Positions 2,447 through 48,244 of a stretch of DNA of 48,244 bases are shown piece by piece. Source of the DNA: a virus; UHGV virus genome UHGV-0308199; one strand, written 5' to 3'. The position numbers and the translations under genes are program-made. The notes under the pieces were generated by a model. It was not told the DNA's origin. It was given only the letters and a program-made list of their open reading frames with translations, and searched no databases. Each line of letters begins with the position of its first letter. Position 1 is the first letter of the stretch.

Positions 2447-2544
2447 ACAGCATCAGGAAAAATGAAGAACTATTTTTAAGCAGAGGCTTAAGCATGCCAG
2501 CGTTAATTAATCCAGGCAATGATCAGTTTTCGGTTATAAATTTC

Positions 2545-2880
2545 TTGCCTCACCAGGAATGCGCGGGATATAGTTTAAAGGTTGCCGCAAAATCGGCAGC
2601 CGGGCGTAGGAACCCGTGTTATCTGAAGGCGATACTACACGCGCTAGGCGTGTTTTTTTGTGTCGCAGCTTTGACTCACCTAAAATTTATGGTGTGGTGG
2701 CTGATTGTATTTTTTTATTTTTTACGCCACATCATCAGAATTATGGTAGTCCAGGCGGGGCAGCTTTCGGGCTGGCCGGTATCCTTCAGAGCCGGTATTC
2801 CTACCCCCGTCTGGGCTACCACCCATGAGCGTAGGAACTCCGGTGGTAGCGTTACCCGCTATCTGAAGGAGGTTGCCATT
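2545..2880 (+). promoter_or_regulatory. structured leader: sigma70-like promoter (TTGCCT-18-TATAGT, 2545-2574), direct repeats GCGTAGGAAC...TATCTGAAGG (2604-2629 and 2829-2872) and an intrinsic terminator (2637-2660)
   Basis: Read directly; second repeat copy supplies GAAGGAGG RBS for the ATG at 2881; ORF-track ORF 2494..3084 is low-complexity over this stretch. Confidence 0.4.
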
Positions 2881-3084
2881 ATGGCTACAGTCCCTGCTTT
2901 ATCTCACCCTGAATTTACCTTTGTCTTTCTGGCTGTCCGCCGTACAGACCGTGATGCCCGTCCACGCCCTGTGCGTGTAATCGCAGAATGCGAGCATGCT
3001 GCACGCCTTAAACTTGCCACTGAATTTATCCTGAGCTTTGCTGCCCGTATCCCTGTGAAAAGAGCCGGGGAGGTGGTTGCATGA
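2881..3084 (+). CDS. small hypothetical protein (67 aa) downstream of the leader
   Basis: ATG at 2881 with GAAGGAGG RBS 9 nt upstream; in frame with 3' part of track ORF 2494..3084. Confidence 0.4.
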   Translation: MATVPALSHPEFTFVFLAVRRTDRDARPRPVRVIAECEHAARLKLATEFILSFAARIPVKRAGEVVA

Positions 3085-3317: not shown

Positions 3318-3720
3318 TAATCAAAATTTAAAGGCGCATGCTTTACGAACAGCAGTCTTACGCTACTACATTGCTGATGCATTCATTTCCTTAATGGTGC
3401 GTGTTCATAATGAACCTGTTTATATTGAAGATGGCGAACGAATAGAACTCTCCCACGAAAAAGTGGTGAGTAATATTATTTACCATATTGAAATGCCGTG
3501 GGTGAATGAGTTTGGGGCTGATGCTGGTTGCATACTGGCCGCAGAGAAACTGGAAAAAATGCTTAAACCAGGCTTTATGTCAGAAAATATTCGCCTGTCA
3601 GTTTTTGGTGTCACAGAGATGCGTGAGGTTTACCGGGATATTATTTTCGGAGCACCTGATGGCGAACTACCCGAAGGTTTTGAATTTGTGAAGCCGGAAG
3701 GTCAGGAGGTGCTGCTGTGA
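3310..3720 (+). CDS. hypothetical protein
   Basis: 136 aa; stop overlaps primase GTG start. Confidence 0.5.
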   Translation: MNNNQNLKAHALRTAVLRYYIADAFISLMVRVHNEPVYIEDGERIELSHEKVVSNIIYHIEMPWVNEFGADAGCILAAEKLEKMLKPGFMSENIRLSVFGVTEMREVYRDIIFGAPDGELPEGFEFVKPEGQEVLL

Positions 3721-6404
3721 AAACACCGTCTGTATCCACGATTTCCGGAGCTGCAATTGGGCGCTGGCCTTATATCCTGTCAGCATTAGGTATTAAAGTA
3801 CCGTCCGCAGGACATCATGGGGCTTGCCCTGCCTGTGGTGGAAAAGATCGTTTTCGACTGGACGATAAAGCGGGGCGAGGGACGTGGTTTTGTAATCAGT
3901 GCGGTCATGGCGATGGTCTTGATCTGGTTCGTCTGGTGACAGGAAGAAAGATAAAAGAAGTCGCCGGGATGGTATCTGAGGCGCTTGCATTACCAGAAAT
4001 ACAGGAGAAGCCCGCATTGCCAGCCAGGAAAAAGGCCGCAGGAAAAGAAGCGGGCGCGGAGCGATATACCAGACTCAGACAGCAGTCCTGCAATGGTGAG
4101 CCGGTCTATCTGACAAATAAGAGCTTACACGGGTATTCACTTCCCTTGCTGTCACAGCCTTTGAATCTGGCCGGAATAACATTTTCCACCGGTTCATTAC
4201 TGCTGCCTTTGACGGATATTTCCGGGAATATTACTGGTGGCCAGCTTATCAATCCTGACGGGGATAAAAGTCTGCTGCCCGGTAGCCAGCTGTCTGGCGC
4301 ATTCATTGCCCTGACCGATATACCCGCTGAAACACCTGAACAGGTGATTATCACTGAGGGTTTTGCCACGGCGCTTACCGTCAGTCTGCTGACTGAAGGA
4401 TGGATCGTGGCGGCTGTCGCTGCCACCAATTTACTGAAGGTGACGGAGCAGATCCGAAAACGCTGGCCGGAAACCCGGATCATTCTGGCCGGAGATAATG
4501 ATCTGGCTGACGGCAAAGAAAACACCGGGCGTATTCAGGCAGAGAAAGCCGCCAAAGCGGTGGATGGCTGGGTAACGCTCCCTCCGGTACGCCATAAGGC
4601 TGACTGGGATGATTATCGGCAGGAAGTGGGGAAAGAACGGGCGAGAGATGCCTTTCGTGAAGAAATGACGCTGCATGGCAAAGGGCAGACCCGTTTACCA
4701 GAAGGGTTCCGGCTGACAAAAGAATATTTGTGGTACGACAAGCTGGTTAATAAGTCTGATGGTGATACAGAGATACGTAATATCAAAATTTGCAGTCCGT
4801 TGCGGGTGACGGCAATCACCAGTGATGCTGATGGAAGTAATTACGGGCGTTTGCTGGAATGGGAAGATACCAACGGAAACAGCCGTAAATGGGCAATGCC
4901 GATGGAGATGCTGGGCGGTAGCGGGGAAGAACTGCGCCGCGTTCTGCTGGTTAACGGGCTTTCTTACATCAACATTAACGGCATGGCCAGAGCATTCCTG
5001 ATGGAATATATCTCGCTGTGTAAACCGGACAGAAAAGTAACCTGTGTGAATAAAACTGGCTGGCACGGCGGGGTTTACGTTCTCCAGGATGAAGTGATAG
5101 GGCGCGAAGCCCAGTCAGTCATCTTACAAACATCGAGTGTGCAGGGGCGTGATTTTCGTGTCAGCGGCACATCAGAGGGCTGGCGTGAAAATATAGGCCG
5201 TTATTGCATAAAGAATGCCCGTCTTGCCTTTGCGGTGAGTCTGGCATTTGCTGCCCCCCTTCTGAAACTGGTTGGTATCGGCGGTGGAGGTTATCACCTC
5301 AAAGGGGAATCCACAGACGGTAAAACCACGACGATGAAAGTGGCTGCATCAGTATGTGGTGGAACAGATTTCTGGCATACGTGGCGGGCGACGGGGAATG
5401 CCTTAGAAGGAACGGCGAGCCGCCGCAATGATGCCACGCTGATGCTGGATGAAATCCGGGAGGTTGACGGCAGGGAGGCGGGAAATATCGCTTATATGCT
5501 GGCTAACGGGCAGGGCAAAGCCAGAGCCAGAACAGATGGTTCGGTAAGGGAAACCAACCGCTGGAATCTGTTGTTTCTGTCTACCGGGGAACTGTCACTG
5601 GTAGAGCATGCGGCAAGCGCCGGGGAACGTACGTATGCCGGGGTTGAGGTCAGAATGATCCAGATCCCAAGCGATTCGGGCAAGTATGGCGTGTTTGAAG
5701 AACTTCATGGCTTCAGTAGCGGGAAAACCCTGGCTGAGCATCTTGAGCAGCACGTAGCGCATTATCATGGTGCACCATTCCGCGACTGGCTGTATTGCCT
5801 GACCGCTGATCTGCCGGAACTGACCAGTCAGGCGAAAGCCTTATTGAAAGAGTATACCCGAAGGCTGACGCCGGAAAATGCCGGGAATCAGGTTGGCCGG
5901 GCTGTTACCCGTTTTGCTCTGGTTGCGATGGCCGGGGAGCTGGCCACAAAAGCGGGCATCACAGGATGGCCGGAGGGAGAGGCCTTTCGTGCCGCTCAAA
6001 GCTGTCTGGCTGCATGGATGGCTGACCGGGGCCATACAGCTAATCAGGAAGATAAAGCGGCACTTGAACAGGTTCGGGACTTCATGACGCGTAATCAGTT
6101 CAGTCGGTTTGCTGACTGGAATGACGACAGGAACCGGCCTGTTTCAATGATGGGATTCAGAAAAGTCGATAAAGGAGACAACGTGACAGAGCCGGTTGTG
6201 ACGTTCTACGTTCTCCCGTCAGGCTGGAAGGAGATCTGTAAGGGATTTGACTCGCGTAAGGTGGCCAGGTTGTGTGTGGACGCGGGCTGGCTGAAACCCG
6301 GTGAAGATGGCCGGACGCAAAACAGCATTCGCCTGCCAGAAATAGGGCTTAAACGTGTGTACCAGTTCAATACACAGGTACTGGGAAGCGCTGAACCTGA
6401 GTGA
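3717..6404 (+). CDS. P4 alpha-type primase-helicase (zinc-binding, TOPRIM, P-loop NTPase)
   Basis: 895 aa; CPACGG...CNQCGH zinc motif, ITEG and AGDND TOPRIM motifs, Walker A GESTDGKTT; GTG start. Confidence 0.9.
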   Translation: MKTPSVSTISGAAIGRWPYILSALGIKVPSAGHHGACPACGGKDRFRLDDKAGRGTWFCNQCGHGDGLDLVRLVTGRKIKEVAGMVSEALALPEIQEKPALPARKKAAGKEAGAERYTRLRQQSCNGEPVYLTNKSLHGYSLPLLSQPLNLAGITFSTGSLLLPLTDISGNITGGQLINPDGDKSLLPGSQLSGAFIALTDIPAETPEQVIITEGFATALTVSLLTEGWIVAAVAATNLLKVTEQIRKRWPETRIILAGDNDLADGKENTGRIQAEKAAKAVDGWVTLPPVRHKADWDDYRQEVGKERARDAFREEMTLHGKGQTRLPEGFRLTKEYLWYDKLVNKSDGDTEIRNIKICSPLRVTAITSDADGSNYGRLLEWEDTNGNSRKWAMPMEMLGGSGEELRRVLLVNGLSYININGMARAFLMEYISLCKPDRKVTCVNKTGWHGGVYVLQDEVIGREAQSVILQTSSVQGRDFRVSGTSEGWRENIGRYCIKNARLAFAVSLAFAAPLLKLVGIGGGGYHLKGESTDGKTTTMKVAASVCGGTDFWHTWRATGNALEGTASRRNDATLMLDEIREVDGREAGNIAYMLANGQGKARARTDGSVRETNRWNLLFLSTGELSLVEHAASAGERTYAGVEVRMIQIPSDSGKYGVFEELHGFSSGKTLAEHLEQHVAHYHGAPFRDWLYCLTADLPELTSQAKALLKEYTRRLTPENAGNQVGRAVTRFALVAMAGELATKAGITGWPEGEAFRAAQSCLAAWMADRGHTANQEDKAALEQVRDFMTRNQFSRFADWNDDRNRPVSMMGFRKVDKGDNVTEPVVTFYVLPSGWKEICKGFDSRKVARLCVDAGWLKPGEDGRTQNSIRLPEIGLKRVYQFNTQVLGSAEPE

Positions 6405-7638: not shown

Positions 7639-8520
7639 ATGAGTCATAATAAAAAGGAATATGCTAAATTTTTCCGTCGCCCCATTTTTTCATCCTTAGC
7701 AAAAGGTAAGGATATTTCGGATTTATTTGGGAGTTTTGATTCTTACTGCTATGAAACACTGTTTTCAAACAATGATAATAATGAACATGAGATTTCACTA
7801 AGGGATTTATTTACATCATTATATGATTTTTTGCGTCTGAATTATAGAAATGAATATGTTTATAAGACAGCACTTGTCAATAAAATAATATTCGGTAAGC
7901 ACAGCCCAAAAACAAGTTCGTCGTCCATAGAGTTACCAATTAAAAACTCTATAGTGGATGTTGCGGTGTTTAATGGTACGTCTACAGCTTACGAGATTAA
8001 GACAGAGTATGATTCACCAAAAAGGTTGATTACTCAAGCCCCTGATTATTTGGATGTTTTTGATAAAGTGTATATAGTTACACATCCAGAGTATGCAAGT
8101 AAATATTGTGCTTTAAATCTCCCCAGAGTGGGAGTTATGGTTTTGAATAAAAAAGATCAATTGAGTGTCATTAAGGAGGCAGATTCAAATATTGATTATA
8201 TTAAAAGTGACAGCTTGTTTTCAGTTCTTAGAAAGGAAGAGTTCTTAGCTATAATAGAAGATTACACTTCAACTAAAATAAATATGCCTAACGGATTGGT
8301 TTATGAATATTGTAAAGAGATATTCATGCAGATGCCATTAAACATAGCAAATAAATACTTTATCTCTGCTATGAAAAAAAGATGTAACGATAAAGTTTTT
8401 TTGGATTATATTTATTCTCTTCCAGCATGTTTACGTGTTTTAGGTTATGCAACACCATTATCAAGAAAGCAAAAAGAATTCATCATGAATTTGATGGATG
8501 TAAAAATTAAAATTTGTTGA
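7639..8520 (+). CDS. cargo protein A, predicted PD-(D/E)xK-fold nuclease-like (candidate defense component)
   Basis: 293 aa; ~30-33% GC by eye; IVDVAVFNGTSTAYEIKTE gives D-x12-E-x-K signature. Confidence 0.7.
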   Translation: MSHNKKEYAKFFRRPIFSSLAKGKDISDLFGSFDSYCYETLFSNNDNNEHEISLRDLFTSLYDFLRLNYRNEYVYKTALVNKIIFGKHSPKTSSSSIELPIKNSIVDVAVFNGTSTAYEIKTEYDSPKRLITQAPDYLDVFDKVYIVTHPEYASKYCALNLPRVGVMVLNKKDQLSVIKEADSNIDYIKSDSLFSVLRKEEFLAIIEDYTSTKINMPNGLVYEYCKEIFMQMPLNIANKYFISAMKKRCNDKVFLDYIYSLPACLRVLGYATPLSRKQKEFIMNLMDVKIKIC

Positions 8521-8541: not shown

Positions 8542-9492
8542 ATGTATAGCCCATATTTGTATGCGAGAAGTACAGAGTTATTATGCCTTAGGGACCTCGT
8601 TGCGAAGGGAGTTAGCCTAAATGGTCTGCTACCAATTTTAGAACCAATTAACGTCAATACGAGAAATTTATTAACATGTTTAAATGTTTGGAATTCTGAC
8701 ATAATTGTTATCCTTAATCCTTATCAGGAAGATTTTTCTTCACACAATAACGTCTTAACTTTAAATCAAAATTTATCAAGTGTATTAACAAATAAAAATA
8801 ATATCATCTCTGGATATCTTATTCAGCCCAATACAACGATTAATGATATTAATAATTGGTTGAATGCTAACTTAAATAGACGAGTTGCACTTCTATATGA
8901 TAATCCATCATTATCCAACTCTGATATTCAGTTGTTGGCGACAAATCAATTGATTAGTTATCATGTTGTTTTAAATAATAAAATGCTTCCTAATCAGTGC
9001 GCTCTTCTTCCTTTGTCGAAGTTAATTATTATTAGCGATAACTTTAGAAAGTTAGCAAAAAATGCTGATTATAATGGGCCGGAACTTTTCACGCACGCAC
9101 ATCAATTCGTGGGACAAAATTACTTAGGATTTGGCGATTATACAATTACTGGCCAGGTACTAGATCTTGGAGGTGGTCAACCTTCTGCTGTTGCCGCACA
9201 TTTGGTGTTCAAGAATTTACAAGCGAATACAGTTTGGATTCGTCATTTTGTATCAAGCAACACGCAACGAGGAAGTTCAAATGTTACTGCAAAATTTTTA
9301 GATGTTTCAGATCAAATTACAAATCTTGTTCCCCAACATCCAACCCAGTTTGGCAGCAACATTGGTCTTAACTATTATTATTACAATAGTCAACCAACTG
9401 TAAGGCATTTCCCTGGGTTGCCAAAAAACAAACAGTATCAAATTACTCACCATATTTGTTTCATGCTGGATTTAATAGCAGGTCGTATTTAA
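8542..9492 (+). CDS. cargo protein B, unknown function (candidate defense component)
   Basis: 316 aa, N/L/Q-rich, ~28% GC; AGGAG RBS; 21-nt gap from gene A; 3' end overlaps convergent int by 21 nt; no Walker A/B seen. Confidence 0.7.
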   Translation: MYSPYLYARSTELLCLRDLVAKGVSLNGLLPILEPINVNTRNLLTCLNVWNSDIIVILNPYQEDFSSHNNVLTLNQNLSSVLTNKNNIISGYLIQPNTTINDINNWLNANLNRRVALLYDNPSLSNSDIQLLATNQLISYHVVLNNKMLPNQCALLPLSKLIIISDNFRKLAKNADYNGPELFTHAHQFVGQNYLGFGDYTITGQVLDLGGGQPSAVAAHLVFKNLQANTVWIRHFVSSNTQRGSSNVTAKFLDVSDQITNLVPQHPTQFGSNIGLNYYYYNSQPTVRHFPGLPKNKQYQITHHICFMLDLIAGRI

Positions 9493-10647
9493 TAAGCTAG
9501 CGTACCATTCCATCATTACTTGTCGATCTTTAATATATTGCGCATGATTGTAAGTACCTCGAATAGAGTTCTTATCAACATGCGCAAGCTGCATTTCAAT
9601 CCAGGCACTTTCAAACCCATGCTCATGCAAGATGGTGCTCATGGTATGCCTGAAACCGTGACCCGTTAACCGACCGTGATAACCCAGTAGTTTTATCACT
9701 TTGTTGATGCTGGCTTCGCTCATTGGTTTACTGACGTCATTCCGGCCAGGGAAAACGAGGCTGTAATTCCCTGTTATTTCTTGCAGCTTTTTCAGGATAT
9801 TGATCGCCTGAGTTGATAACGGAACCAGATGGGGGCGGCGTTTCTTCATCCGTTCTTTGGGGATCTCCCATAAGGCATTATCTAAATCAAACTCAGCCCA
9901 TTCCGCTGCACGTAGTTCAATTGTTCGCACGCCTGTTAGCATCAACAGCTGCGTGGCGTATTTGGTAACTAAACTGCCCTGATAGTTATCCAGAGCATTA
10001 ACGAACTCGGGCAACTCGCTTTCAGTCAGGAACGGGAAGTGTTGGGTTTTAGGTTTGTTGAGTGCGATAGCTAAATCGGGTGCAAAATTATACTTTGCTC
10101 TACCAGTGGCAACAGCATAACGAAGCACTTCACCACAGCGGCGGCGGATCTTACTGGTTTGCTCTAGCGCACCTCTTTTCTCTATTTTTTGCAGGACGGT
10201 TAGCAGTTCTAATGGTTCAATCTGCTCAATTGGGCGCTGGCCGATAAAAGGAAAAATATCCTTTTCCATACAATTGAGAACCTCTTTTGCATAACCCTCT
10301 GACCAGGTGGCTTTTTTCGATGAGTGCCATTCTCTGGCCACAGACTCAAAGCTGTTCTCATGCGCGAACTGCAAAGCAATCTTATCTGCTTTTCTGGCTT
10401 CACTTGGGTTTATCCCGTTGGCTAACATCGAACGCGCTTCATCACGTTTGGTACGTGCCTGTGCCAACGACACATCGCCATATACGCCAAAGGAAATCAT
10501 CTTAGGCTTACCTGCAAAGCGATAGCGAAAACGCCAGCCTTTACTGCCCGCTGTGTCGATCAGGAGTGATAGCCCCATACCATCGTTAAGCGTATAGGGT
10601 TTGTCCTTCGGTTTTGCTCTTTTTATTTGGATGTCAGATAGCAGCAT
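9472..10647 (-). CDS. int: tyrosine integrase, P4/CP4-57 family
   Basis: N-terminus LSDIQIKRAKPKDKPYTLNDGMGLSLLI...WRFRYRF (arm-binding type); C-terminus HGFRHT...LAH...GTYNHAQY catalytic motifs; start taken at internal Met (10647). Confidence 0.9.
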   Translation of the reverse strand: MLLSDIQIKRAKPKDKPYTLNDGMGLSLLIDTAGSKGWRFRYRFAGKPKMISFGVYGDVSLAQARTKRDEARSMLANGINPSEARKADKIALQFAHENSFESVAREWHSSKKATWSEGYAKEVLNCMEKDIFPFIGQRPIEQIEPLELLTVLQKIEKRGALEQTSKIRRRCGEVLRYAVATGRAKYNFAPDLAIALNKPKTQHFPFLTESELPEFVNALDNYQGSLVTKYATQLLMLTGVRTIELRAAEWAEFDLDNALWEIPKERMKKRRPHLVPLSTQAINILKKLQEITGNYSLVFPGRNDVSKPMSEASINKVIKLLGYHGRLTGHGFRHTMSTILHEHGFESAWIEMQLAHVDKNSIRGTYNHAQYIKDRQVMMEWYASLLNTTCY

Positions 10648-10895
10648 GTGTATAGAAAAAAGATCGAACTCAGTTATACACAATGTTATACGCAAAGATG
10701 TATAGATTCCATTAGAAATAATGGTACTTTGCTGGACGAGTATAAGGAGATGATATCAGTTAAAACAGTGAGTTATGGAATTAATTGAACTTAGTGAGAA
10801 GTGTTCATGGTGTCCCCTGCAGACATCTACTTGAAGCGGCAGGGGATTGATTGGAATGGTGTTTTTTAGATGTGAGAAATATTTTACCCGCTATT

Positions 10896-28375: not shown

Positions 28376-28450
28376 GGGTCAGTCGTATAAAGGTCATTAC
28401 GGAAGGCTGTTAACCTTCTTATCGTGGTTCGAGTCCACGCTGTCCCGCCA
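28376..28450 (+). tRNA. tRNA, anticodon GUU (Asn) by manual fold
   Basis: Cloverleaf: acceptor 6/7 bp, anticodon stem GAAGG/CCTTC, loop CTGTTAA, T-arm CGTGG-TTCGAGT-CCACG, encoded CCA. Confidence 0.55.
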
Positions 28451-28455
28451 AATAT

Positions 28456-28531
28456 GCTGGTTTAGCTCCAATGGTAGAGCAGTCGCCTTGTAAGCGAATG
28501 GGTAGCGGTTCAAGTCCGTTAACCAGCACCA
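28456..28531 (+). tRNA. tRNA, anticodon UGU (Thr) by manual fold
   Basis: Acceptor GCTGGTT/AACCAGC 7/7, D-arm GCTC-CAATGGTA-GAGC, anticodon loop CTTGTAA, T-arm AGCGG-TTCAAGT-CCGTT, encoded CCA. Confidence 0.65.
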
Positions 28532-38901: not shown

Positions 38902-40320
38902 ATGCCGATTCAGCAACTTCCGCTCATGAAAGGTGTCGGCAAAGACTTCCGAAATGCCGACTATATCGACTATCTGCCAGTGAATATGCTGGCTACCCCC
39001 AAAGAAATCCTGAACAGCAGCGGATATCTTCGCTCATTCCCGGGCATTGCCAAACGTTCTGATGTGAACGGCGTATCGCGCGGCGTCGAGTACAACATGG
39101 CGCAGAGTGCTGTTTATCGCGTGTGTGGTGGCAAGTTGTATAAGGGCGAAAGCGAAGTCGGTGATGTTGCCGGAAGTGGTCGTGTATCAATGGCGCACGG
39201 TCGGACATCTCAGGCTGTAGGCGTTAATGGTCAACTGGTCGAATACCGCTATGATGGCACGGTTAAAACCGTCTCAAACTGGCCTACAGACAGCGGATTC
39301 ACGCAGTATGAGTTAGGCTCAGTCCGCGACATTACGCGCTTACGTGGGCGTTATGCGTGGTCAAAAGATGGTACTGATTCATGGTTTATCACTGACCCTG
39401 AAGACGAATCACATCCTGACCGTTACAGCGCACAATATCGCGCAGAATCGCAGCCTGACGGCATCATCGGCATAGGTACATGGCGAGACTTCATAGTCTG
39501 CTTTGGTTCGTCGACGATTGAATATTTCTCCCTGACTGGTGCAACCACAGTTGGTGCTGCTTTGTATGTCGCACAGCCATCACTGATGGTGCAGAAAGGC
39601 ATTGCCGGAACCTACTGCAAAACGCCGTTTGCTGACTCATATGCGTTCATCAGCAATCCGGCAACAGGTGCGCCGTCTGTGTACATCATCGGCTCCGGTC
39701 AGGTGTCACCAATCGCCAGTGCGAGCATTGAGAAAATCCTCCGCTCCTACACTGCTGATGAACTGGCTGATGGCGTGATGGAATCGTTGCGGTTTGATGC
39801 TCATGAGTTGCTGATTATCCATCTTCCGCGTCACGTCCTCGTGTACGACGCATCTTCAAGCGCCAATGGTCCGCAATGGTGTGTGCTGAAAACAGGACTG
39901 TATGACGATGTGTACCGCGCTATCGACTTCATTTACGAAGGAAATCAGATAACGTGCGGCGATAAGCTGGAATCTGTTACCGGGAAACTGCAATTCGATA
40001 TCAGCAGCCAGTACGACAAGCAACAGGAACACCTGCTGTTTACTCCACTCTTCAAAGCGGATAACGCCAGAGTGTTCGACCTTGAGGTTGAATCGTCAAC
40101 TGGCGTTGCGCAGTACGCCGACCGCCTTTTTCTCTCTGCAACCACTGACGGCATCAATTACGGGCGTGAGCAGATGATTGAGCAGAATGAACCGTTCGTT
40201 TACGACAAACGTGTTTTGTGGAAGCGAGTTGGGCGCATCAGGAAAAATGTCGGCTTCAAATTACGCGTTATCACGAAGTCACCTGTCACTCTGTCTGGCT
40301 GCCAGATAAGGATTGAGTAA
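38902..40320 (+). CDS. tail hub protein (P22 gp10-like)
   Basis: 472 aa, same length and position as P22 gp10. Confidence 0.7.
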
Positions 40321-41168
40321 TGGCGGATTCGAATCTCAATGTTCCGGTAATCATTCAGGCTGCACGGCTCGACACATCAGTCCTTCCACGCAATATCTTC
40401 TCGCAGTCGTATCTGCTTTACGTTATCGCACAGGGCACTGATGTTGGTAATGTGGCTAACAAGGCCAACGAGGCCGGACAGGGCGCTTATGATGCACAAG
40501 TCAGGAACGATGAGCAGGATGTGATTCTCGCTGACCATGAGCAGCGAATTTCTGCTGCGGAAGCAACGCTTGTTAATCATGAGGAGCGAATCAGCCAGGC
40601 AGAATCAACTCTTCAGGGACATGAAACGCGAATCGCTCAGAATGAAAGCGATATTGCGTCGCTTGATACCAGAGTTCAGTCGCTGGAGTTGCAGGTTTCA
40701 GACCATGAAACGCGCATTGATGCTCTGGAGTATGCAACCACGCGCAAGAAGTCAGAGGTTGTTTACTCTGGCGTATCTGTAACCATCCCGACAGCGCCGA
40801 CCAACCTTGTTAGCCTGCTGAAAACGCTCACGCCGTCATCCGGAACGTTGGCACCATTCTTCGACACCGTTAACAACAAGATGGTTGTGTTCAACGAGAA
40901 CAAAACCTTGTTCTTCAAGCTGTCGATTGTCGGGACGTGGCCCAGCGGAACCGCCAATAGGTCAATGCAGCTAACCTTTTCCGGCTCTGTTCCTGACACA
41001 CTGGTTAGCAGTCGTAATGCGGCGACAACAACCGACAACATCCTGTTAGCTACGTTCTTCAGCGTGGATAAAGACGGCTTTCTTGCCACAAATGGCAGTA
41101 CGTTAACCATTCAGTCGAATGGTGCGGCGTTTAATGCCACAACCATCAAAATCATTGCGGAGCAGTGA
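40320..41168 (+). CDS. tail needle (P22 gp26-like) with C-terminal knob extension
   Basis: N-terminus [43 protein letters not shown] matches recalled gp26; 282 aa versus ~233 in P22. Confidence 0.8.
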
Positions 41169-41623
41169 TGATTCAGTTCAAACCAACGCGAAATATCGAC
41201 CTGATCGAAGCAGTCGGAAATCACCCTGACATTATTGCCGGAAGCAACAATGGTGATGGATACGACTACAAGCCTGAATGTCGTTACTTTGAGGTGAACG
41301 TGCACGGTCAGTTCGGCGGCATTGTTTACTATCAGGAGATTCAGCCGCTGACATTCGATTGCCACGCCATGTACCTGCCAGAGATTCGCGGCTTCAGCAA
41401 GGAAATTGGGCTGGCGTTCTGGCGATACATTCTGACTAACACCACCGTTCAGTGCGTCACATCGTTCGCTGCGCGCAAATTCCGCCACGGGCAGATGTAC
41501 TGCGCAATGATTGGCCTTAAGCGTGTCGGAACCATCAAGAAATACTTCAAAGGCGTGGATGACGTGACATTTTACAGTGCTACACGCGAAGAACTAATCG
41601 ACTTCCTGAATCACGGGAGATAG
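41165..41623 (+). CDS. head assembly protein (P22 gp14-like)
   Basis: 152 aa; position between needle and ejection proteins. Confidence 0.5.
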
Positions 41624-41625
41624 CT

Positions 41626-42318
41626 ATGTTATATGCATTTAAGCTGGGCAGAAAACTGCGCGGAGAGGAACCTTATTGCCCTGAAAAAGGCGGGAAAGGT
41701 GGGTCCGATAAAAGCGCAAAGTATGCAGCAGAAGCTCAGAAGTATGCCGCAGACCTGCAGAATCAGCAGTGGCAGACGATCATGAAAAACCTTGCTCCGT
41801 TCACGCCACTCGCTCAGCAGTACGTATCACAATTGCAGAATCTTTCCTCTCTTCAGGGGCAAGGTCAGGCACTTAACCAGTATTACAACTCTCAGCAGTA
41901 CAAAGATCTTGCTGGTCAGGCTCGCTATCAGAGTCTGGCGGCAGCGGAAGCAACAGGTGGATTGGGTTCCACTGCAACCGGTAATCAGTTAGCAACAATC
42001 GCACCAACGCTTGGTCAGCAGTGGCTGTCTGGTCAGATGAACAACTACCAGAATCTGGCAAATATTGGTCTTGGCGCACTGCAAGGTCAGGCAAACGCCG
42101 GGCAGACATATGCCAACAACATGAGTCAGATTTCGCAGCAAAGTGCGGCTCTTGCCGCTGCTAATGCCAATAAACCATCAGGTCTTCAGACAGCAATTAG
42201 CGGCGGAGCTTCAGGGGCTATGACTGGCGCTGCTCTTGGCTCTATTGTTCCAGGACTTGGCACTGGATTAGGTGCGGCAATGGGCGGCGGACTTGGCCTG
42301 CTTGGCTCGTTGTTTTAA
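41626..42318 (+). CDS. ejection protein (P22 gp7-like)
   Basis: N-terminus MLYAFKLGRKLRGEEP.CPEKGGKGGS, Q/G/A-rich body. Confidence 0.75.
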   Translation: MLYAFKLGRKLRGEEPYCPEKGGKGGSDKSAKYAAEAQKYAADLQNQQWQTIMKNLAPFTPLAQQYVSQLQNLSSLQGQGQALNQYYNSQQYKDLAGQARYQSLAAAEATGGLGSTATGNQLATIAPTLGQQWLSGQMNNYQNLANIGLGALQGQANAGQTYANNMSQISQQSAALAAANANKPSGLQTAISGGASGAMTGAALGSIVPGLGTGLGAAMGGGLGLLGSLF

Positions 42319-42327
42319 GGGGTAATC

Positions 42328-43716
42328 ATGGCTACTTGGCAAGGAACAAACGGCGGATTGTTGGCTGGTATCGGCGGCGTCAACTCAAACGCCCCGAGCG
42401 TAAATGACATCGGCAATACGCTTCAGCTTATCAGGCAGAACAATGATATTGAGCGTTCAGGCGCTAACAATGTTGGGCTGACTGCTTTGCAAGGCCTTTC
42501 AGGTATTGCAGGGGTGCTTCAGCAGGAAAAGCAGGCTCAGCGGCAGAAAGAATTTCAGCAGGCGTACGCTAATGCTTATGCGTCTGGTGATCGCGGTGCT
42601 TTGCGTCAGTTGGCTACTCAATATCCAGACCAGATTGAATCCGTTCGTAAAGGCATGGGATTCATTGATGAAGACCAGCGTAATTCTATCGGCACCTTAG
42701 CGGCTGGCGCACGCCTTGCGTCATCGTCTCCAGAAGCAATGCAATCATGGCTGCAAAACAACGCCAAGGAACTGGCGCGCGTCGGCGTTGACCCTAACAA
42801 CGTTGCTCAGATGTATCAGCAGAATCCTTCAGGATTTGGCGAGTTTGTTGATCACCTCGGAATGGCTGCTCTTGGTCCGATTGATTACTTCAATGTTCAG
42901 GACAAGATGGCTGGTCGTGAGATTGACAGAGGCAGACTGGCAGAGACAATCCGCAGCAATCAGGCCGGAGAGGCGCTAACAGCACGAGGTCAAAACATCA
43001 CGATGCGCGGTCAGGATTTATCTGCTTCTACTGCGCGACGCGGGCAGGATTTGGCAATGCAGCGAGCGTCAACAAGAGGAACCGCTGGGAATGATGAGCG
43101 TACAGTTCAGTTATCAGATGGCAGAACTGTAACGGTAGGCGGGAAGCTTCACGGCGCTGGGGCTAATGCGTTCTACGAAGGCATCGACAACGAGGGGAAT
43201 ATGGTTCGCGTTCCTGCCAGTTCAATCGCAGCGCCTGCAACATCGTCTGCATCAGCACAAAACTATGCCATGAAGAAGGATATCGACGCGATCGCAAATG
43301 CAGACGCTTCTGCTCTCGATTTCATGACAGGAATGACCGGCGGTGCAGGTAACCCGGCAATTGGTGCTGATGTTCGCAGCCGATTAACAGGAAAAGAGCA
43401 GCGCCAGTTATATAACTCAGCACAACGTATTCAGGGAAGAATGCAGAATCAGGGCGTGGCGGCAGCAAGGGACATGGGTGCCAGTGGTATTAACACCGTT
43501 GCAGAAGCGAAGATGTATTTTCAGGGGATGCCGCAGGTTGACTATTCAAGCCCGGAGGCTATGCAGCAGTCGATTCGTGAAATTCAGGAATACACCAACA
43601 ATTACAACCAACAATATAACGTTAATGTTGGTAAATCTCAGCGGAAGCAATCTCAATCTGCACAGGTATCACAGCCAGCAGCCAGCAGTAACTTTTCTTC
43701 ACTATGGGGTGATTAA
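42328..43716 (+). CDS. ejection protein (P22 gp20-like)
   Basis: 462 aa; size and position. Confidence 0.6.
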
Positions 43717-45713
43717 TGGCTAAAGCATGGAAAGATGTTATCGCCTCTCCACAGTATCAGGCGTTAGCACCAGAACAAAAAGCGCAGGCTCAGGAGCAAT
43801 ACTTCAATGAAGTCGTGGCCCCGCAAGCCGGAGAAAATGCAGAGCAGGCTAAGCAAGCTTTCTATGCTGCCTATCCATTGCCATCTGTGCAGCCAGTGGA
43901 GACACAACAACCAGTAGCACAGCAACAACCACAGCAAAGTGGATTTATGTCTGATCTTGGTGAAGCAGTAAAAGAGACTGGTCGTGGACTGGTGCAGGCT
44001 GGCGTGAACGTGGCAAACATACCTGCATCAGTTGCCGATGCTGTAACAAGCGCGGCGGCTTGGGCTGGCGGTAAACTCGGTATTGGCGATGGTACATATC
44101 AACCAGCACCACGAGTAACAACGCAGGGATTAGAGCAGGACTTTGGCCTTCAGCAAGGTGCGCTGACTCCACAAACGACAGAGGGAAGGGTATTTTCTGA
44201 AGCATTGCCTTACCTCACTCCTGCTGGCGTTGAGAGAGCGGCAACACAGGCACCAACACTTGCTGGTCGAATTGCTCAGGGGGCAACTCGCCTTCTCGCA
44301 GAAAACGCAGTTGGATCACTTGCTGCAAATAGTGCGAAAGATGATGCGGAAGCACTCGCCACCGATTTAGGCGTTGGTGTGCTGGCTGGCGGTGCTATTA
44401 ACGCTGCCGGACGTGGATTAGGTGCTGCTTATCGTGGCGTTCGTGGTTCTATTGCGCCAGAAGCGCAGCAGGCTATCAGATTTGCAGAGCGTGAAGGAGT
44501 TCCTCTGCACACCACAGACCTGTTACAACCAACTTCCCGCGTCGGAAAAATGGCGCAGACTACAGCAGAAAATATCCCTCTGGCTGGCACAAGCGGAATG
44601 AGAGCAACGCAACAGGAAGCGAGAAGCCAGTTGGTGCAGAGATTTGCTGATAAATTTGGTGAGTATGATCCAGCGGTTGTTATTGACAGCCTTAAAGCGA
44701 AAACATCAGGAATTCGTCGTGCCGCCGGTAATCGACTGGAGCAGGTTCAGAATGCTATGGCTGGAGTAAACATTCAGCCTGCGCGAGCAATTCAGCAGAT
44801 TGATACTGAGATATCTAATCTGCAGAAGCTTGGTAAGGTAGCTGATAACGAGACAATTTCAAAACTTCAGTCATATCGTGATGAGCTTGTTCGCAATGCT
44901 GGTCCTGATGGTCCGGTAAATCTGGATTTGAAGCAATTAAGCGACCTGCGCAGCCAGTTCAGAATGGACGTGAAGGGTGAGCGCCCAGTGTTACCAAACC
45001 GTTCCGATGCTGCCATTCAGCGCGTTTACAAGGCAATGACTGACGATATCAATGGTGCCATTGGTCAGAATCTTGGCAACGATACTCTCCGTAAATATCA
45101 GCAGGCCAATGCCGTCTACGCTGACGAAGCGGCGAAACTAAAGAATACCAGGCTGAAGAATGTTCTCATGAAAGGCGACCTGACGCCGGAAGTTGTCAAC
45201 AACATGCTATTCAGCAAGAACAAATCGGAAATTAAGACGCTGTATAACTCAGTTGGTCGTGTTGGCAGGGCGCAAATGCGCAATGGCATCATTGGAAAGG
45301 CGATGGAGAAATCTGGCGGATCCCCTGACCAGTTCCTTCGGCAGCTTAACATCCTGCAAAACCAGACTGGCATCACATTTAAGGGGCAGGACGCTGCTTA
45401 TCTGAAAGGATTAAAAAACTACCTACAATCCACGCAGCAGGCTGCAAAAGCGGCAGTAACAACACCCACAGGGCAGCAAACTATCCCGTTCATTATTGGG
45501 TATGGGACGGCAATGAACCCGGCGACAACTGGCGCAGCAGTAAGCTACGGACTTCTTACTCGCGCCTATGAGAGCGAGCCATTCAGAAATGCAATGCTCC
45601 GAATGGCAAACACCCCACGCGGATCAACAGAGTTTGAGAAAACCATGCAGCAGGCACAAAAGGCAATTAACGCCCTGACGCAGGGTGCGAAGTCTGATTC
45701 GTTGTCAGAATAG
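43716..45713 (+). CDS. ejection protein (P22 gp16-like)
   Basis: 665 aa; size and position. Confidence 0.6.
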   Translation: MAKAWKDVIASPQYQALAPEQKAQAQEQYFNEVVAPQAGENAEQAKQAFYAAYPLPSVQPVETQQPVAQQQPQQSGFMSDLGEAVKETGRGLVQAGVNVANIPASVADAVTSAAAWAGGKLGIGDGTYQPAPRVTTQGLEQDFGLQQGALTPQTTEGRVFSEALPYLTPAGVERAATQAPTLAGRIAQGATRLLAENAVGSLAANSAKDDAEALATDLGVGVLAGGAINAAGRGLGAAYRGVRGSIAPEAQQAIRFAEREGVPLHTTDLLQPTSRVGKMAQTTAENIPLAGTSGMRATQQEARSQLVQRFADKFGEYDPAVVIDSLKAKTSGIRRAAGNRLEQVQNAMAGVNIQPARAIQQIDTEISNLQKLGKVADNETISKLQSYRDELVRNAGPDGPVNLDLKQLSDLRSQFRMDVKGERPVLPNRSDAAIQRVYKAMTDDINGAIGQNLGNDTLRKYQQANAVYADEAAKLKNTRLKNVLMKGDLTPEVVNNMLFSKNKSEIKTLYNSVGRVGRAQMRNGIIGKAMEKSGGSPDQFLRQLNILQNQTGITFKGQDAAYLKGLKNYLQSTQQAAKAAVTTPTGQQTIPFIIGYGTAMNPATTGAAVSYGLLTRAYESEPFRNAMLRMANTPRGSTEFEKTMQQAQKAINALTQGAKSDSLSE

Positions 45714-45877
45714 CTTTGCAAACACCAGAAATGTGCAAAAACCAAATATATAGAACGCAATATTCAACAGATATTTTTGCATAGACTCATTTCATAGTTA
45801 ACAAATCATAACTTACATTAATGCAATGCCGGGCAAGTTGCATCTTGTTCCGCATTGCTACGTCTGGAGAAAATTAA

Positions 45878-48244
45878 ATGACAGACATTACAGCCAATGT
45901 TGTAGTGAGTATGCCTTCGCAACTTTTCACTATGGCGCGTTCTTTTAAAGCAGTAGCCAACGGCAAAATTTATATCGGAAAAATTGACACTGACCCGGTA
46001 AGTCCAGAAAACCAGATTCAGGTTTATGTAGAGAACGAAGACGGCTCTCATGTTCCTGTTTCGCAACCAATCATCATTAACGCTGCTGGATATCCGGTAT
46101 ATAACGGGCAGATTGCCAAATTCGTAACTGTGCAAGGCCATTCTATGGCTGTATATGATGCATATGGCACTCAGCAGTTTTATTTTCCAAATGTATTAAA
46201 ATACGATCCTGATCAACTTAGGGAAGAGATTTTTTCTGACCGTATGCTGTTAATTACGCCACAGCATTATGGGGCGAAAGGTGACGGTGTTAACGATGAT
46301 ACGGTGGCATTTATTGCAGCAGCAAATGCTCTTGGAGATGGTGGAAAGTTATATATTCCAACTGGAACATATAATTTAATTGGACCAGTTAATATACCAC
46401 CAGTGAATATGTGTGGCGATGGACAGGGTAAAACGGTTATTGTGTTTGATAATACCACATCACCAAAAGATGGATTTGTTTTCGCTGCACCAACTAAGCA
46501 TGATGTTGAATTTGGTTTAAGTCACCTTACAATTAAAAGCAAAGGCGGGAATGGCGCTAATGCCATATATACCCCAAGAGGTGTCGGGCTTAATCATCTA
46601 AGGCCAAAACCAACATTTAGATTTTTATCTTTCTGTTCTGAGACTGCAAATATTGATTCTGATGAATTCGCACAGAAGTACGGTTGGGAATGGTCTTTTA
46701 ACTGTGGTGATAGTTGGCAGTTCACAATCGAACGCATTGATGCTGTTGGATGTTATCAGATAGCCAAAAGTTATAATGAACAGTTCCTTGATGGATTCAT
46801 TCGCACCGCTCCAGAAGAAGGTATTTTATCCATGCGTGTGAGTGATATCACAACGCATAACGTTGCCAATTTTTTTGAAATTAAGCAGAAGACATATTTC
46901 AATCTTACCAATGTCGATGTTGCTAGATCCCTAAACGGTGTTTATGATGCTCAGGATAGAGTGTTCGAATCAAATCGCTATGCGTATGGTGAGTCTATAT
47001 GGACAAACGTTATCATTAATAGCCAGCTTCACCCTATTAATCTTGATAACAGATTTCTTTTGATTGCTAATGGACTAGCCATACATAGAGCAGGAGGAGG
47101 ATATGACCACGGAAATGAATGGGTAGGAATTAGACTCATCAGACCAAGAGTGTGCACCATTAATGGATTGGAGATTAGCAGTGCATCAGGTTATACGACG
47201 ACTAAAAAAGGAATAATTATAGATGGTGGCGATGCAAACAACTTCATTAATGTAAGTTTTGGTACATTGGATATTGGAGCTCAGATAGGAGTAACATCAT
47301 CAATACATGGAGCAAATCAGGCGACAAACTTTTCCAATATTAGCATTAATGCTAATGTCACAACATTACTTAACATACAAAACGCACGTGGTTTTAATTG
47401 CAGCCAGTATACTGCATCTCCTCTCTACACTCTTGCCAATTTAATGGTCAATGATGACAAAGTAAATAACACATTTACACTTACAAATATTGATGGCAAA
47501 AATAATTACACTGATAACTCTATTTATCTTTATAATCAGGAAGCATCAGAAGATACCAAAAGATGGAGGATAGATACTCGTACCGGATACACACTATCCA
47601 CTCAGAAAGACAATGGTGCACAAGGTAATAACGCTATCATTATTCGTCGCAGTGGAATAATTGTAGACTCTATAGAATTACGCACAAAAAACGATTCTGG
47701 CGGATATCTTCTTCATACATCACCTGAAACTCATTTTTCTGGCCTTATAAAACCAACTGTTGATAATGTTAACTCAAACGGAACATCAGCATTTCGATGG
47801 TCACAGGTATACGCTGGTACTGGCAGTATCAACACGTCGAATGAAGAGCTGAAATTGCGTATTGAGGCTGACGAGAAAACAACAGAATCAGAGCGTCTTG
47901 CTGCGCTTGAAATAAAGAAAAATATCTGGAGGTTTAAATTTAAAGATGCAGTAAAGATCAAGAGTGATGGCGCTCGGATTCATTTCGGTGTTGGTGCACA
48001 AACTGTAGGTAATATTCTCAGAAAATACGGTCTTGACCCTAATAACTATGCGTTCTGGTGTTATGATGAATGGGATGATATTTATGCTCCAGAGGTATTA
48101 ATTAGGAGTGTTAAAAACAATGAAACAGGAGAGTGGTACGACGAGGAATATTACACAGGAAGGCAGGTTATTATTAAACCTGCTGGTTATCAGTATGGTA
48201 TCAGATACGAGGAACTTCTGATGTTTATTCTTATGTTTATTTAA
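45878..48244 (+). CDS. tailspike: P22-type head-binding N-terminus + pectate-lyase-like beta-helix + C-terminal intramolecular-chaperone domain
   Basis: N-terminus [11 protein letters not shown]...[21 protein letters not shown]...VLKYDPDQ matches recalled P22 gp9; [18 protein letters not shown] motif; C-terminus resembles endosialidase-chaperone domain; stop at 48242-48244. Confidence 0.85.

Follow-up and report, generated by a model that had tools for sequence, protein, structure and literature searches.

The window analysed here, a 48,244-nt stretch of DNA, ends in a tailspike gene and raises the question of which pieces that gene is made of, where they are joined and which host glycan its product might recognise. 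Tailspikes determine the host range of phages and serve as typing and antibacterial reagents. The exchange of N-terminal adaptors among phage tail proteins is well documented.

The tailspike gene and its domains

The tailspike ORF is real and intact: it begins with an ATG placed at a nine-base offset from a GGAG (45866-45869), and its TAA stop codon forms the last three bases of the window. It lies at the end of the late operon, behind homologues of the ejection proteins gp7, gp20 and gp16. The ORF immediately preceding it (43716-45713, 665 aa), at a spacing of 164 nt, equals in both length and spacing the annotated gp16 homologue of a 99.9% identical prophage. In E. coli AH21A060, a 99.9% identical copy of the tailspike gene closes a complete P22-like virion operon with the capsid, portal, gp4, gp10, needle and ejection proteins. 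A scan of 45400-48244 for promoters and terminators gave counts that were not above those of shuffles. The window as a whole is E. coli DNA, in which a P22-like prophage is preceded by an unrelated satellite-like element. We hold with considerable confidence, for the explanation as a whole including its mechanism, that this is the tailspike gene of a temperate, P22-like E. coli phage. The features on which the discussion below draws are as follows, with all positions referring to the window:

45690-45877, + strand: AT-rich stretch comprising the 3' end of the gp16-homologue gene and the 164-nt spacer (GC change point at 45690, GGAG)
45878-48244, + strand: tailspike ORF, 788 aa
45878-46216, + strand: head-binding (virion anchor) domain, aa 1-113 (PF09008 profile match)
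46217-46264, + strand: linker and anchor/enzyme recombination junction, aa 114-129 (ends of partial DNA matches)
46265-46899, + strand: proximal half of the right-handed beta-helix, aa 130-341 (PF12708 at aa 130-204; AF2 pLDDT >90)
46900-47720, + strand: distal, exchangeable half of the beta-helix, gene nt 1023-1843, aa ~341-615 (allele divergence)
47723-47836, + strand: conserved pre-cleavage stalk, aa 616-653, with D629 and R640 (weak End_tail_spike match; T5 pb1/endoNF alignment)
47834-47854, + strand: predicted autoproteolytic site T653/S654 with the general base K659, motif INT-SNEELK (T5/endoNF alignment)
47837-48244, + strand: C-terminal intramolecular chaperone, aa 654-788, 16.0 kDa, and stop codon (phmmer, Foldseek)

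Profile, sequence and fold searches agree on the three-part architecture that had been proposed from the sequence alone (the original prediction). The P22 head-binding domain expected in the first ~110 aa is present from end to end: the Pfam Head_binding profile (PF09008) is aligned over all of its positions (1-113 of 113) with an E-value of 8.7e-67 and 222.9 bits against a cut-off of 24. Solved tailspikes match the same region, namely Sf6 gp14 (7sg7; aa 1-120, E 2e-64) and P22 (8tvr; aa 1-117, E 1e-50), and neither of these two spikes aligns past aa 120 or aa 117, respectively. A domain of this type docks the spike trimer on the tail hub.

The pectate-lyase-like beta-helix of the original prediction is likewise recovered. 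The 18-residue segment that contains the YGAKGDG cap motif (aa 131-148; 46268-46321) falls within a match to PF12708 (Pect-lyase_RHGA_epim) over aa 130-204, which scores 38.3 bits against a cut-off of 27, and the profile is also matched by 19 of 31 homologues. An AF2 monomer model and a fold search show a right-handed parallel beta-helix of the pectate-lyase fold over residues ~126-601. Its solved structural neighbours, which include hydrolases, lyases and epimerases, are all at most 16% identical, and a search of BFVD and the PDB for closer characterised structures returned fold-level neighbours only; NCBIfam gave zero family matches to the tailspike. Members of family GH28 carry the signature motifs NTD, G/QDD, G/SHG and RIK. 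By the crude test of searching for these as strings, none of the four is present in the tailspike, and polygalacturonases match aa 130-249 only, with E ~1e-3. Membership in GH28 is therefore without support, and because the four motifs are absent the name 'GH28-related' given by NCBI to close relatives is not literal.

We propose that the beta-helix would bind and cleave a host surface polysaccharide, and that the virion would thereby reach the outer membrane. It is reasonable to suppose that its specificity differs from that of P22, since past aa 117 the sequence shows no similarity to the P22 endorhamnosidase. Across the 31 homologues, down to 30% identity, seven acidic positions do not vary; most of the family-invariant acids lie in or near the proximal half (D278, D288, D305 and E334), with D347 and E372 just beyond the seam at aa ~341 described below. 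This conservation argues against the beta-helix being a binding-only adhesin, or having a non-glycosidic activity (e.g. deacetylation), as does the fact that, to our knowledge, almost all characterised P22-type spikes of the pectate-lyase-type beta-helix fold are endoglycosidases or lyases. We regard such a role as improbable, while noting in its favour that the catalytic residues of the beta-helix cannot be assigned, that the four GH28 motifs are missing, and that the top fold neighbour is an epimerase, with adhesins such as PfbA among the other neighbours. A chain-cleaving depolymerase is thus the reading that we retain.

At the other end of the protein, the C-terminal ~170 aa match solved chaperones in phmmer searches (7y5s, E 2e-19; T5 pb1, 4uw8, 2e-14; endoNF, 3gw6, 1e-10), with 6eu4 and 3gud also among the matches and the five structures spanning E-values from 2e-19 to 3e-08. 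Foldseek recovers the same fold (3gw6, E 4e-08, prob 1.0; 4uw8, E 1e-07), so that an endosialidase-type chaperone at this position, as had been proposed, is found by both sequence and fold. Two profiles had been expected in the protein, and the outcome was divided: the pectate-lyase profile scored above its cut-off (see above), whereas Peptidase_S74 (PF13884) reached 19.0 bits over aa 654-718, below its cut-off of 22; the latter profile is found in 16 of the 31 homologues (E <=0.001). The stalk that precedes the chaperone gives a sub-threshold match to the C-terminal part of the Pfam End_tail_spike profile (aa 621-653), and its pLDDT is low in the monomer AF2 model, as expected of a segment that folds in the trimer only.

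The residues of the cleavage site can be read from the alignment with T5 pb1 and endoNF. S654 aligns with the positions changed from Ser to Ala in T5 pb1 S1264A (4uw8) and in endoNF (3gw6), K659 aligns with K1269, and the whole set of D629, R640, T653, S654 and K659 is spaced exactly as D1239, R1250, T1263, S1264 and K1269 of T5. The pattern T-S-[DN]-x3-K is retained in the 23 closest of 25 homologues that have the chaperone domain; five homologues lack the chaperone altogether. In T5 pb1 cleavage occurs at Thr1263-Ser1264, with Ser1264 activated by Lys1269 and an oxyanion hole provided by Arg1250 of the neighbouring chain and by Asp1239; as this arginine comes from the neighbouring chain, cleavage needs a correctly folded trimer (PMC4690869). 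In the window spike the chaperone would drive trimerisation of the preceding stalk and would then cut itself between T653 and S654, using a S654/K659 dyad together with R640 of the neighbouring chain and D629. Because the T5 cleavage residues are conserved at the same spacing, the 87.6 kDa precursor is predicted to yield a mature spike of 71.7 kDa and a released chaperone of 16.0 kDa.

Base composition and recombination seams

A horizontally swapped receptor-binding module had been predicted on the basis of a sharp drop in GC content from ~46250. The swap itself is demonstrated, by comparison with other E. coli prophages and not by composition; the drop is absent. Over 40000-48244 the strongest change point lies at 45690 (GC 0.509 to 0.383, log-likelihood ratio 56.8), which is ~190 nt 5' of the tailspike start codon, and the neighbouring structural genes with a GC of 0.51 contrast with a tailspike gene that is AT-rich in its entirety, anchor included. 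Inside the gene the parts have similar values (head-binding 0.410, beta-helix 0.380, C-terminal 0.387; Fisher p 0.33), and the best change point, at 46345, is no better than those of codon shuffles (p 0.68; GC3 p 0.42). As there is no change point within the gene, the head-binding domain is AT-rich too. It is thus very improbable that a GC-normal native anchor was joined to a recently imported AT-rich module at a composition step near 46250, even if GC3 has its minimum (0.16-0.18) at 46253-46477 and a recombination junction lies close by (46190-46265). Composition was consequently rejected as evidence for a seam, since change-point and shuffle tests gave nothing within the gene.

Comparison with related genes indicates instead that recombination has made the tailspike gene a mosaic, with three or more seams (anchor/enzyme at aa ~106-130, mid-helix at aa ~341, helix/stalk at aa ~615), and that it consists of four exchangeable pieces: the virion anchor, the two halves of the beta-helix and the cleavable folding domain. 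The first seam is marked by the ends of partial DNA matches. The anchor alone (gene nt 1 to ~317-380) is present in 1050 of 5426 complete E. coli genomes and in 30 phage records, attached to many different bodies; such anchor-only matches stop at gene nt 314-380, and enzyme-only matches with other N-termini start at nt 389. The allele of strain AVS0578 differs from that of the window at 29 positions, 23 of which fall within gene nt 1-339 (the last at nt 295), followed by two at nt 346-347 and four further downstream. The resulting divergence of 23/339 nt in the anchor versus 6/2028 nt downstream is concentrated in the anchor, which was therefore exchanged independently of the rest. Conversely, the 861-aa protein WP_370144331.1, from a prophage of another type in NRZ14408, carries an unrelated N-terminus of ~200 aa before the module corresponding to aa 130-788, and this body is 95-99% identical outside the variable segment. 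Homology searches indicate that at least five other N-terminal adaptors bear the same enzyme module, the adaptors among the 31 database homologues being Head_binding, Tail_spike_N, Phage_T7_tail, Phage_tail_fib and Mtd_N. Two protein clusters from these searches comprise about 188 and 300 sequences.

The two remaining seams emerge from comparison with the commoner allele of the NRZ14408 type (WP_192459817.1), whose carriers include GF43 and others. Over gene nt 1023-1843 the window and NRZ14408 alleles differ at 349 of 821 nt without a gap, as against 10 of 1207 nt in the flanks (Fisher p 2e-144). At the protein level, the distal segment (aa 341-615/620) is 56% identical between the two, in contrast to the flanking aa 130-340 (95-100%) and aa 621-788 (99-100%); the proximal half shows 91-100% aa identity to alternative alleles. 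The closest relatives also differ according to the half that is compared: P0002 is closest in the proximal half (91%, compared with 56% in the distal half), whereas P0004 and P0006 are closest in the distal half (72-74%, compared with 60-69% in the proximal half). A sharply bounded, 56% identical segment between near-identical flanks, combined with relatives that differ by half, is the signature of a recent double crossover, which would have imported an anciently diverged mid-helix segment, and not of fast local evolution. This swap within the helix is the most interesting detail of the gene.

The seams are more numerous than in the original prediction, which had not foreseen one inside the helix. 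A separate observation concerns repeats: the single tandem repeat that was found is located in the 3' end of the tailspike gene and not in the acetyltransferase gene.

Comparison with known spikes and the adjoining acetyltransferase

A convergent gene for a 218-aa hexapeptide-repeat O-acetyltransferase (WP_000953884.1) lies ~20 nt past the tailspike in all six E. coli prophages examined; the window ends before it. The acetyltransferase DNA is 100% identical beside both tailspike alleles, and the enzyme probably modifies the same glycan in lysogens. NCBIfam places it in the general CatB/Vat hexapeptide group only, below every curated cut-off. The prophages themselves occupy several chromosomal sites (ybhC/bioA, argW/yfdC, torT, and one adjoining another element). 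The genes upstream of the tailspike vary as well, being either gp16 directly or an ant/arc immunity region, and the sequence 5' of the ATG that is shared with the ant-preceded prophages amounts to only ~20 nt.

The plan of a P22 anchor, an enzyme body and a cleavable chaperone is already known from phage CUS-3 (CP000711), whose spike SiaK1 shares with the window spike the P22-type head-binding domain (72% over aa 1-158) and, at the C-terminus, the intramolecular chaperone (29% over aa 582-784, E 2.5e-14). In both phages the spike also adjoins an acetyltransferase gene and an integrase, the order in CUS-3 being ant, spike, neuO, int. It is the enzyme body that differs: CUS-3 has a sialidase as its catalytic module, the window gene a beta-helix, and the middle parts of the two proteins share no sequence similarity. 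The acetyltransferases differ too, as that of the prophages studied here has no BLAST similarity to CUS-3 NeuO, is convergent with the spike and is without heptanucleotide repeats. A phase-variable acetyltransferase of the NeuO kind was accordingly rejected, as BLAST shows no similarity to the CUS-3 neuO region and the acetyltransferase gene contains no such repeats.

Other well-studied spikes share one end of the protein or the other. The tailspikes of Sf6 (gp14), P22 (gp9) and HK620 have no sequence similarity to the window spike past aa ~120, and in our search none of them matched aa 600-788; we know of no cleavable chaperone domain in these three spikes. The K1F endosialidase (3gw6) and T5 pb1 (4uw8) have the same chaperone fold and an identical spacing of the D, R, T-S and K residues, with a chaperone of 135 aa here and of 133 aa in T5, but there the chaperones sit on different receptor-binding bodies, and the residues after the serine are Asn-Glu-Glu-Leu here versus Asp-Ala-Arg-Leu in the K1F/T5 comparison. 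Beta-helix bodies with the same type of chaperone are found in phi29 gp12 and Acinetobacter AS12 gp42. Among 50,697 phage records, one isolated phage alone, PSK1 (PP541512, XAO35746.1), encodes a protein homologous to the enzyme module and chaperone over their full length (54% identity over aa 131-788; 54-56% for the beta-helix). Its uncharacterised spike of 900 aa belongs to a T7-type virion and has a different N-terminal ~240 aa; a literature search found no paper naming phage PSK1.

Glycan target and significance

To approach the receptor, the O-antigen loci were read in four complete genomes carrying the window allele. AH21A060 has an O16 locus, GF4 and TUM9803 have O21 loci, and AVS0578 has an O25 locus in which one gene is frameshifted. 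O21 is found in 35 of 5426 genomes overall versus two of these four carriers, for which a hypergeometric estimate gives ~2e-4 if both strains are independent. GF4 and TUM9803 carry the prophage at different sites and have identical O-locus proteins, and on account of the latter they may be related strains. The O16 and O25 carriers imply that the window allele does not track one O type. The other allele occurs in two O7 strains, Br_112_kylling and NRZ14408, the latter with one copy in each of two different prophages; its six remaining carriers are not among the O7 genomes covered by the listing (~83 of 97). We looked for a clean receptor rule in the O loci of lysogens and set it aside, as carriers of types O16, O21, O21 and O25 yield a hint of O21 only. 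At most, these data hint that the alleles might track O types and that the swapped segment might set specificity. The most likely target of the beta-helix would be the O antigen, with O21 as the best candidate for the window allele, though not an established one.

The same distribution bears on whether the spike could target a glycan other than the O antigen, such as a K capsule, colanic acid or another shared exopolysaccharide, with the cytoplasmic acetyltransferase modifying that polymer in a CUS-3-like manner. Such a target would accommodate the near-identical alleles (98.8-99.9% nt) in O16, O21 and O25 lysogens, and the presence of the alternative allele in an O7 strain when the O7 genomes listed do not include most of its other carriers. 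It would also fit the parallel between the architecture with its adjoining hexapeptide acetyltransferase and CUS-3 siaK1 and neuO, the occurrence of the enzyme module in just one isolated phage, a T7-like UPEC phage that has a spike and not a fibre, and the match of PHROG 8280, annotated as colanic-acid degrading, to aa 1-655. However, O21 is enriched among the carriers, the acetyltransferase is unlike NeuO and without phase-variable repeats, and a solved colanidase and characterised capsule depolymerases give nothing above the level of the fold. Furthermore, resident P22-like prophages can pass spikes to one another by recombination without any infection via this spike. On balance we consider a target of this kind unlikely, though it deserves more weight than the adhesin role discussed above, and the O antigen is kept as the preferred target.

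The internal seams allow a more specific possibility, which we put forward tentatively and consider somewhat doubtful: aa 341-615 might form a specificity cassette in its own right, replaced by double crossovers whose ends lie in a constant proximal half and in an equally constant block formed by the stalk, the chaperone and the acetyltransferase. If this is true, one intra-domain recombination would retarget the spike between O antigens, e.g. of the O21 and O7 types, and the machinery for catalysis, the folding device and the gene that modifies the receptor would all stay in place. Alternatively, recombination among resident prophages may have spread the cassette; GF4 carries three anchor-bearing loci.

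The accepted view of how such proteins work is unchanged by these observations, and the gene is an ordinary but clear case of phages swapping the parts with which they recognise their hosts. With it, an uncharacterised putative depolymerase module joins the small set of P22-type spikes that have a cleavable chaperone. The two naturally occurring alleles, which have identical flanks around a swapped half-helix, would be convenient for mapping the region that governs glycan specificity.

The satellite-like element at the window start

The first ~12,000 nucleotides of the window are separate from the P22-like prophage, and look like a P4-like satellite or an integrative element. The following features were identified in this region:

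1402-2403: P2-family major capsid gene
2494-3081: Ash
3717-6401: primase-helicase with Zn-ribbon, Toprim and DUF927 domains
7639-8517 and 8542-9489: two genes between primase and integrase, of the sce7725/sce7726 family according to NCBI naming in matching genomes
9475-10695, minus strand: P4-type integrase

The product of 7639-8517 matches a PADLOC candidate-defence model (E 1e-18). A total of 415 E. coli genomes, some of them from O25b:H4-ST131 strains, contain the element at a coverage of at least 80%.

In E. coli TUM9803 (loci L017, 21610-32368, and L010), the integrase of another satellite-like element abuts the tailspike gene and its acetyltransferase neighbor. This element also contains Toprim/DUF927 and Ash, and adjoins a second, truncated gp16-type gene; this arrangement suggests nested or rearranged mobile elements.

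Prophage gene content and the region upstream of the tailspike

Within the prophage, ahead of the lysis genes, are genes for tRNA-Asn(GTT) and tRNA-Thr(TGT) (window 28376-28531), a pair shared with the AH21A060 prophage. Whereas the prophages of AVS0578, NRZ14408 and GF43, as well as the P22-like coliphage CUS-3, carry an immunity-I region before the tailspike, its genes (ant, arc, mnt) are absent from window 45714-45877, the interval that separates the tailspike from the gp16 homologue. With the exception of its last ~20 nt, this 164-nt spacer is confined to the arrangement in which the tailspike is adjacent to gp16.

E. coli NRZ14408 contains the receptor-binding body (residues 130-788) twice, in two different prophages (L002, 7397-9979; L003, 3001-5367). 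One prophage is P22-like; in the other, the body is joined to a different N-terminal adaptor with no Pfam match, and this copy adjoins holin and endolysin genes.

In the AVS0578 lysogen, the gene at the expected wzy place in an O25-family O-antigen cluster is frameshifted (L014, 15265-16327), and this strain may therefore not make full O antigen.

The convergent O-acetyltransferase gene

In all six E. coli prophages examined, the tailspike is followed by a convergent gene for the CatB/Vat-like hexapeptide O-acetyltransferase WP_000953884.1, which lies just outside the window as the latter ends exactly at the tailspike stop codon. Its positions in the E. coli loci are:

L001, 8387-9043, convergent with the tailspike
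L003, 5387-6043, convergent with the tailspike
L010-L012, 5887-6543, convergent with the tailspike

The DNA of this gene shows no difference between copies adjoining either tailspike allele (that of the window or that of NRZ14408, GF43 and other strains). It is likely that WP_000953884.1 is a receptor-modifying (seroconversion) gene.
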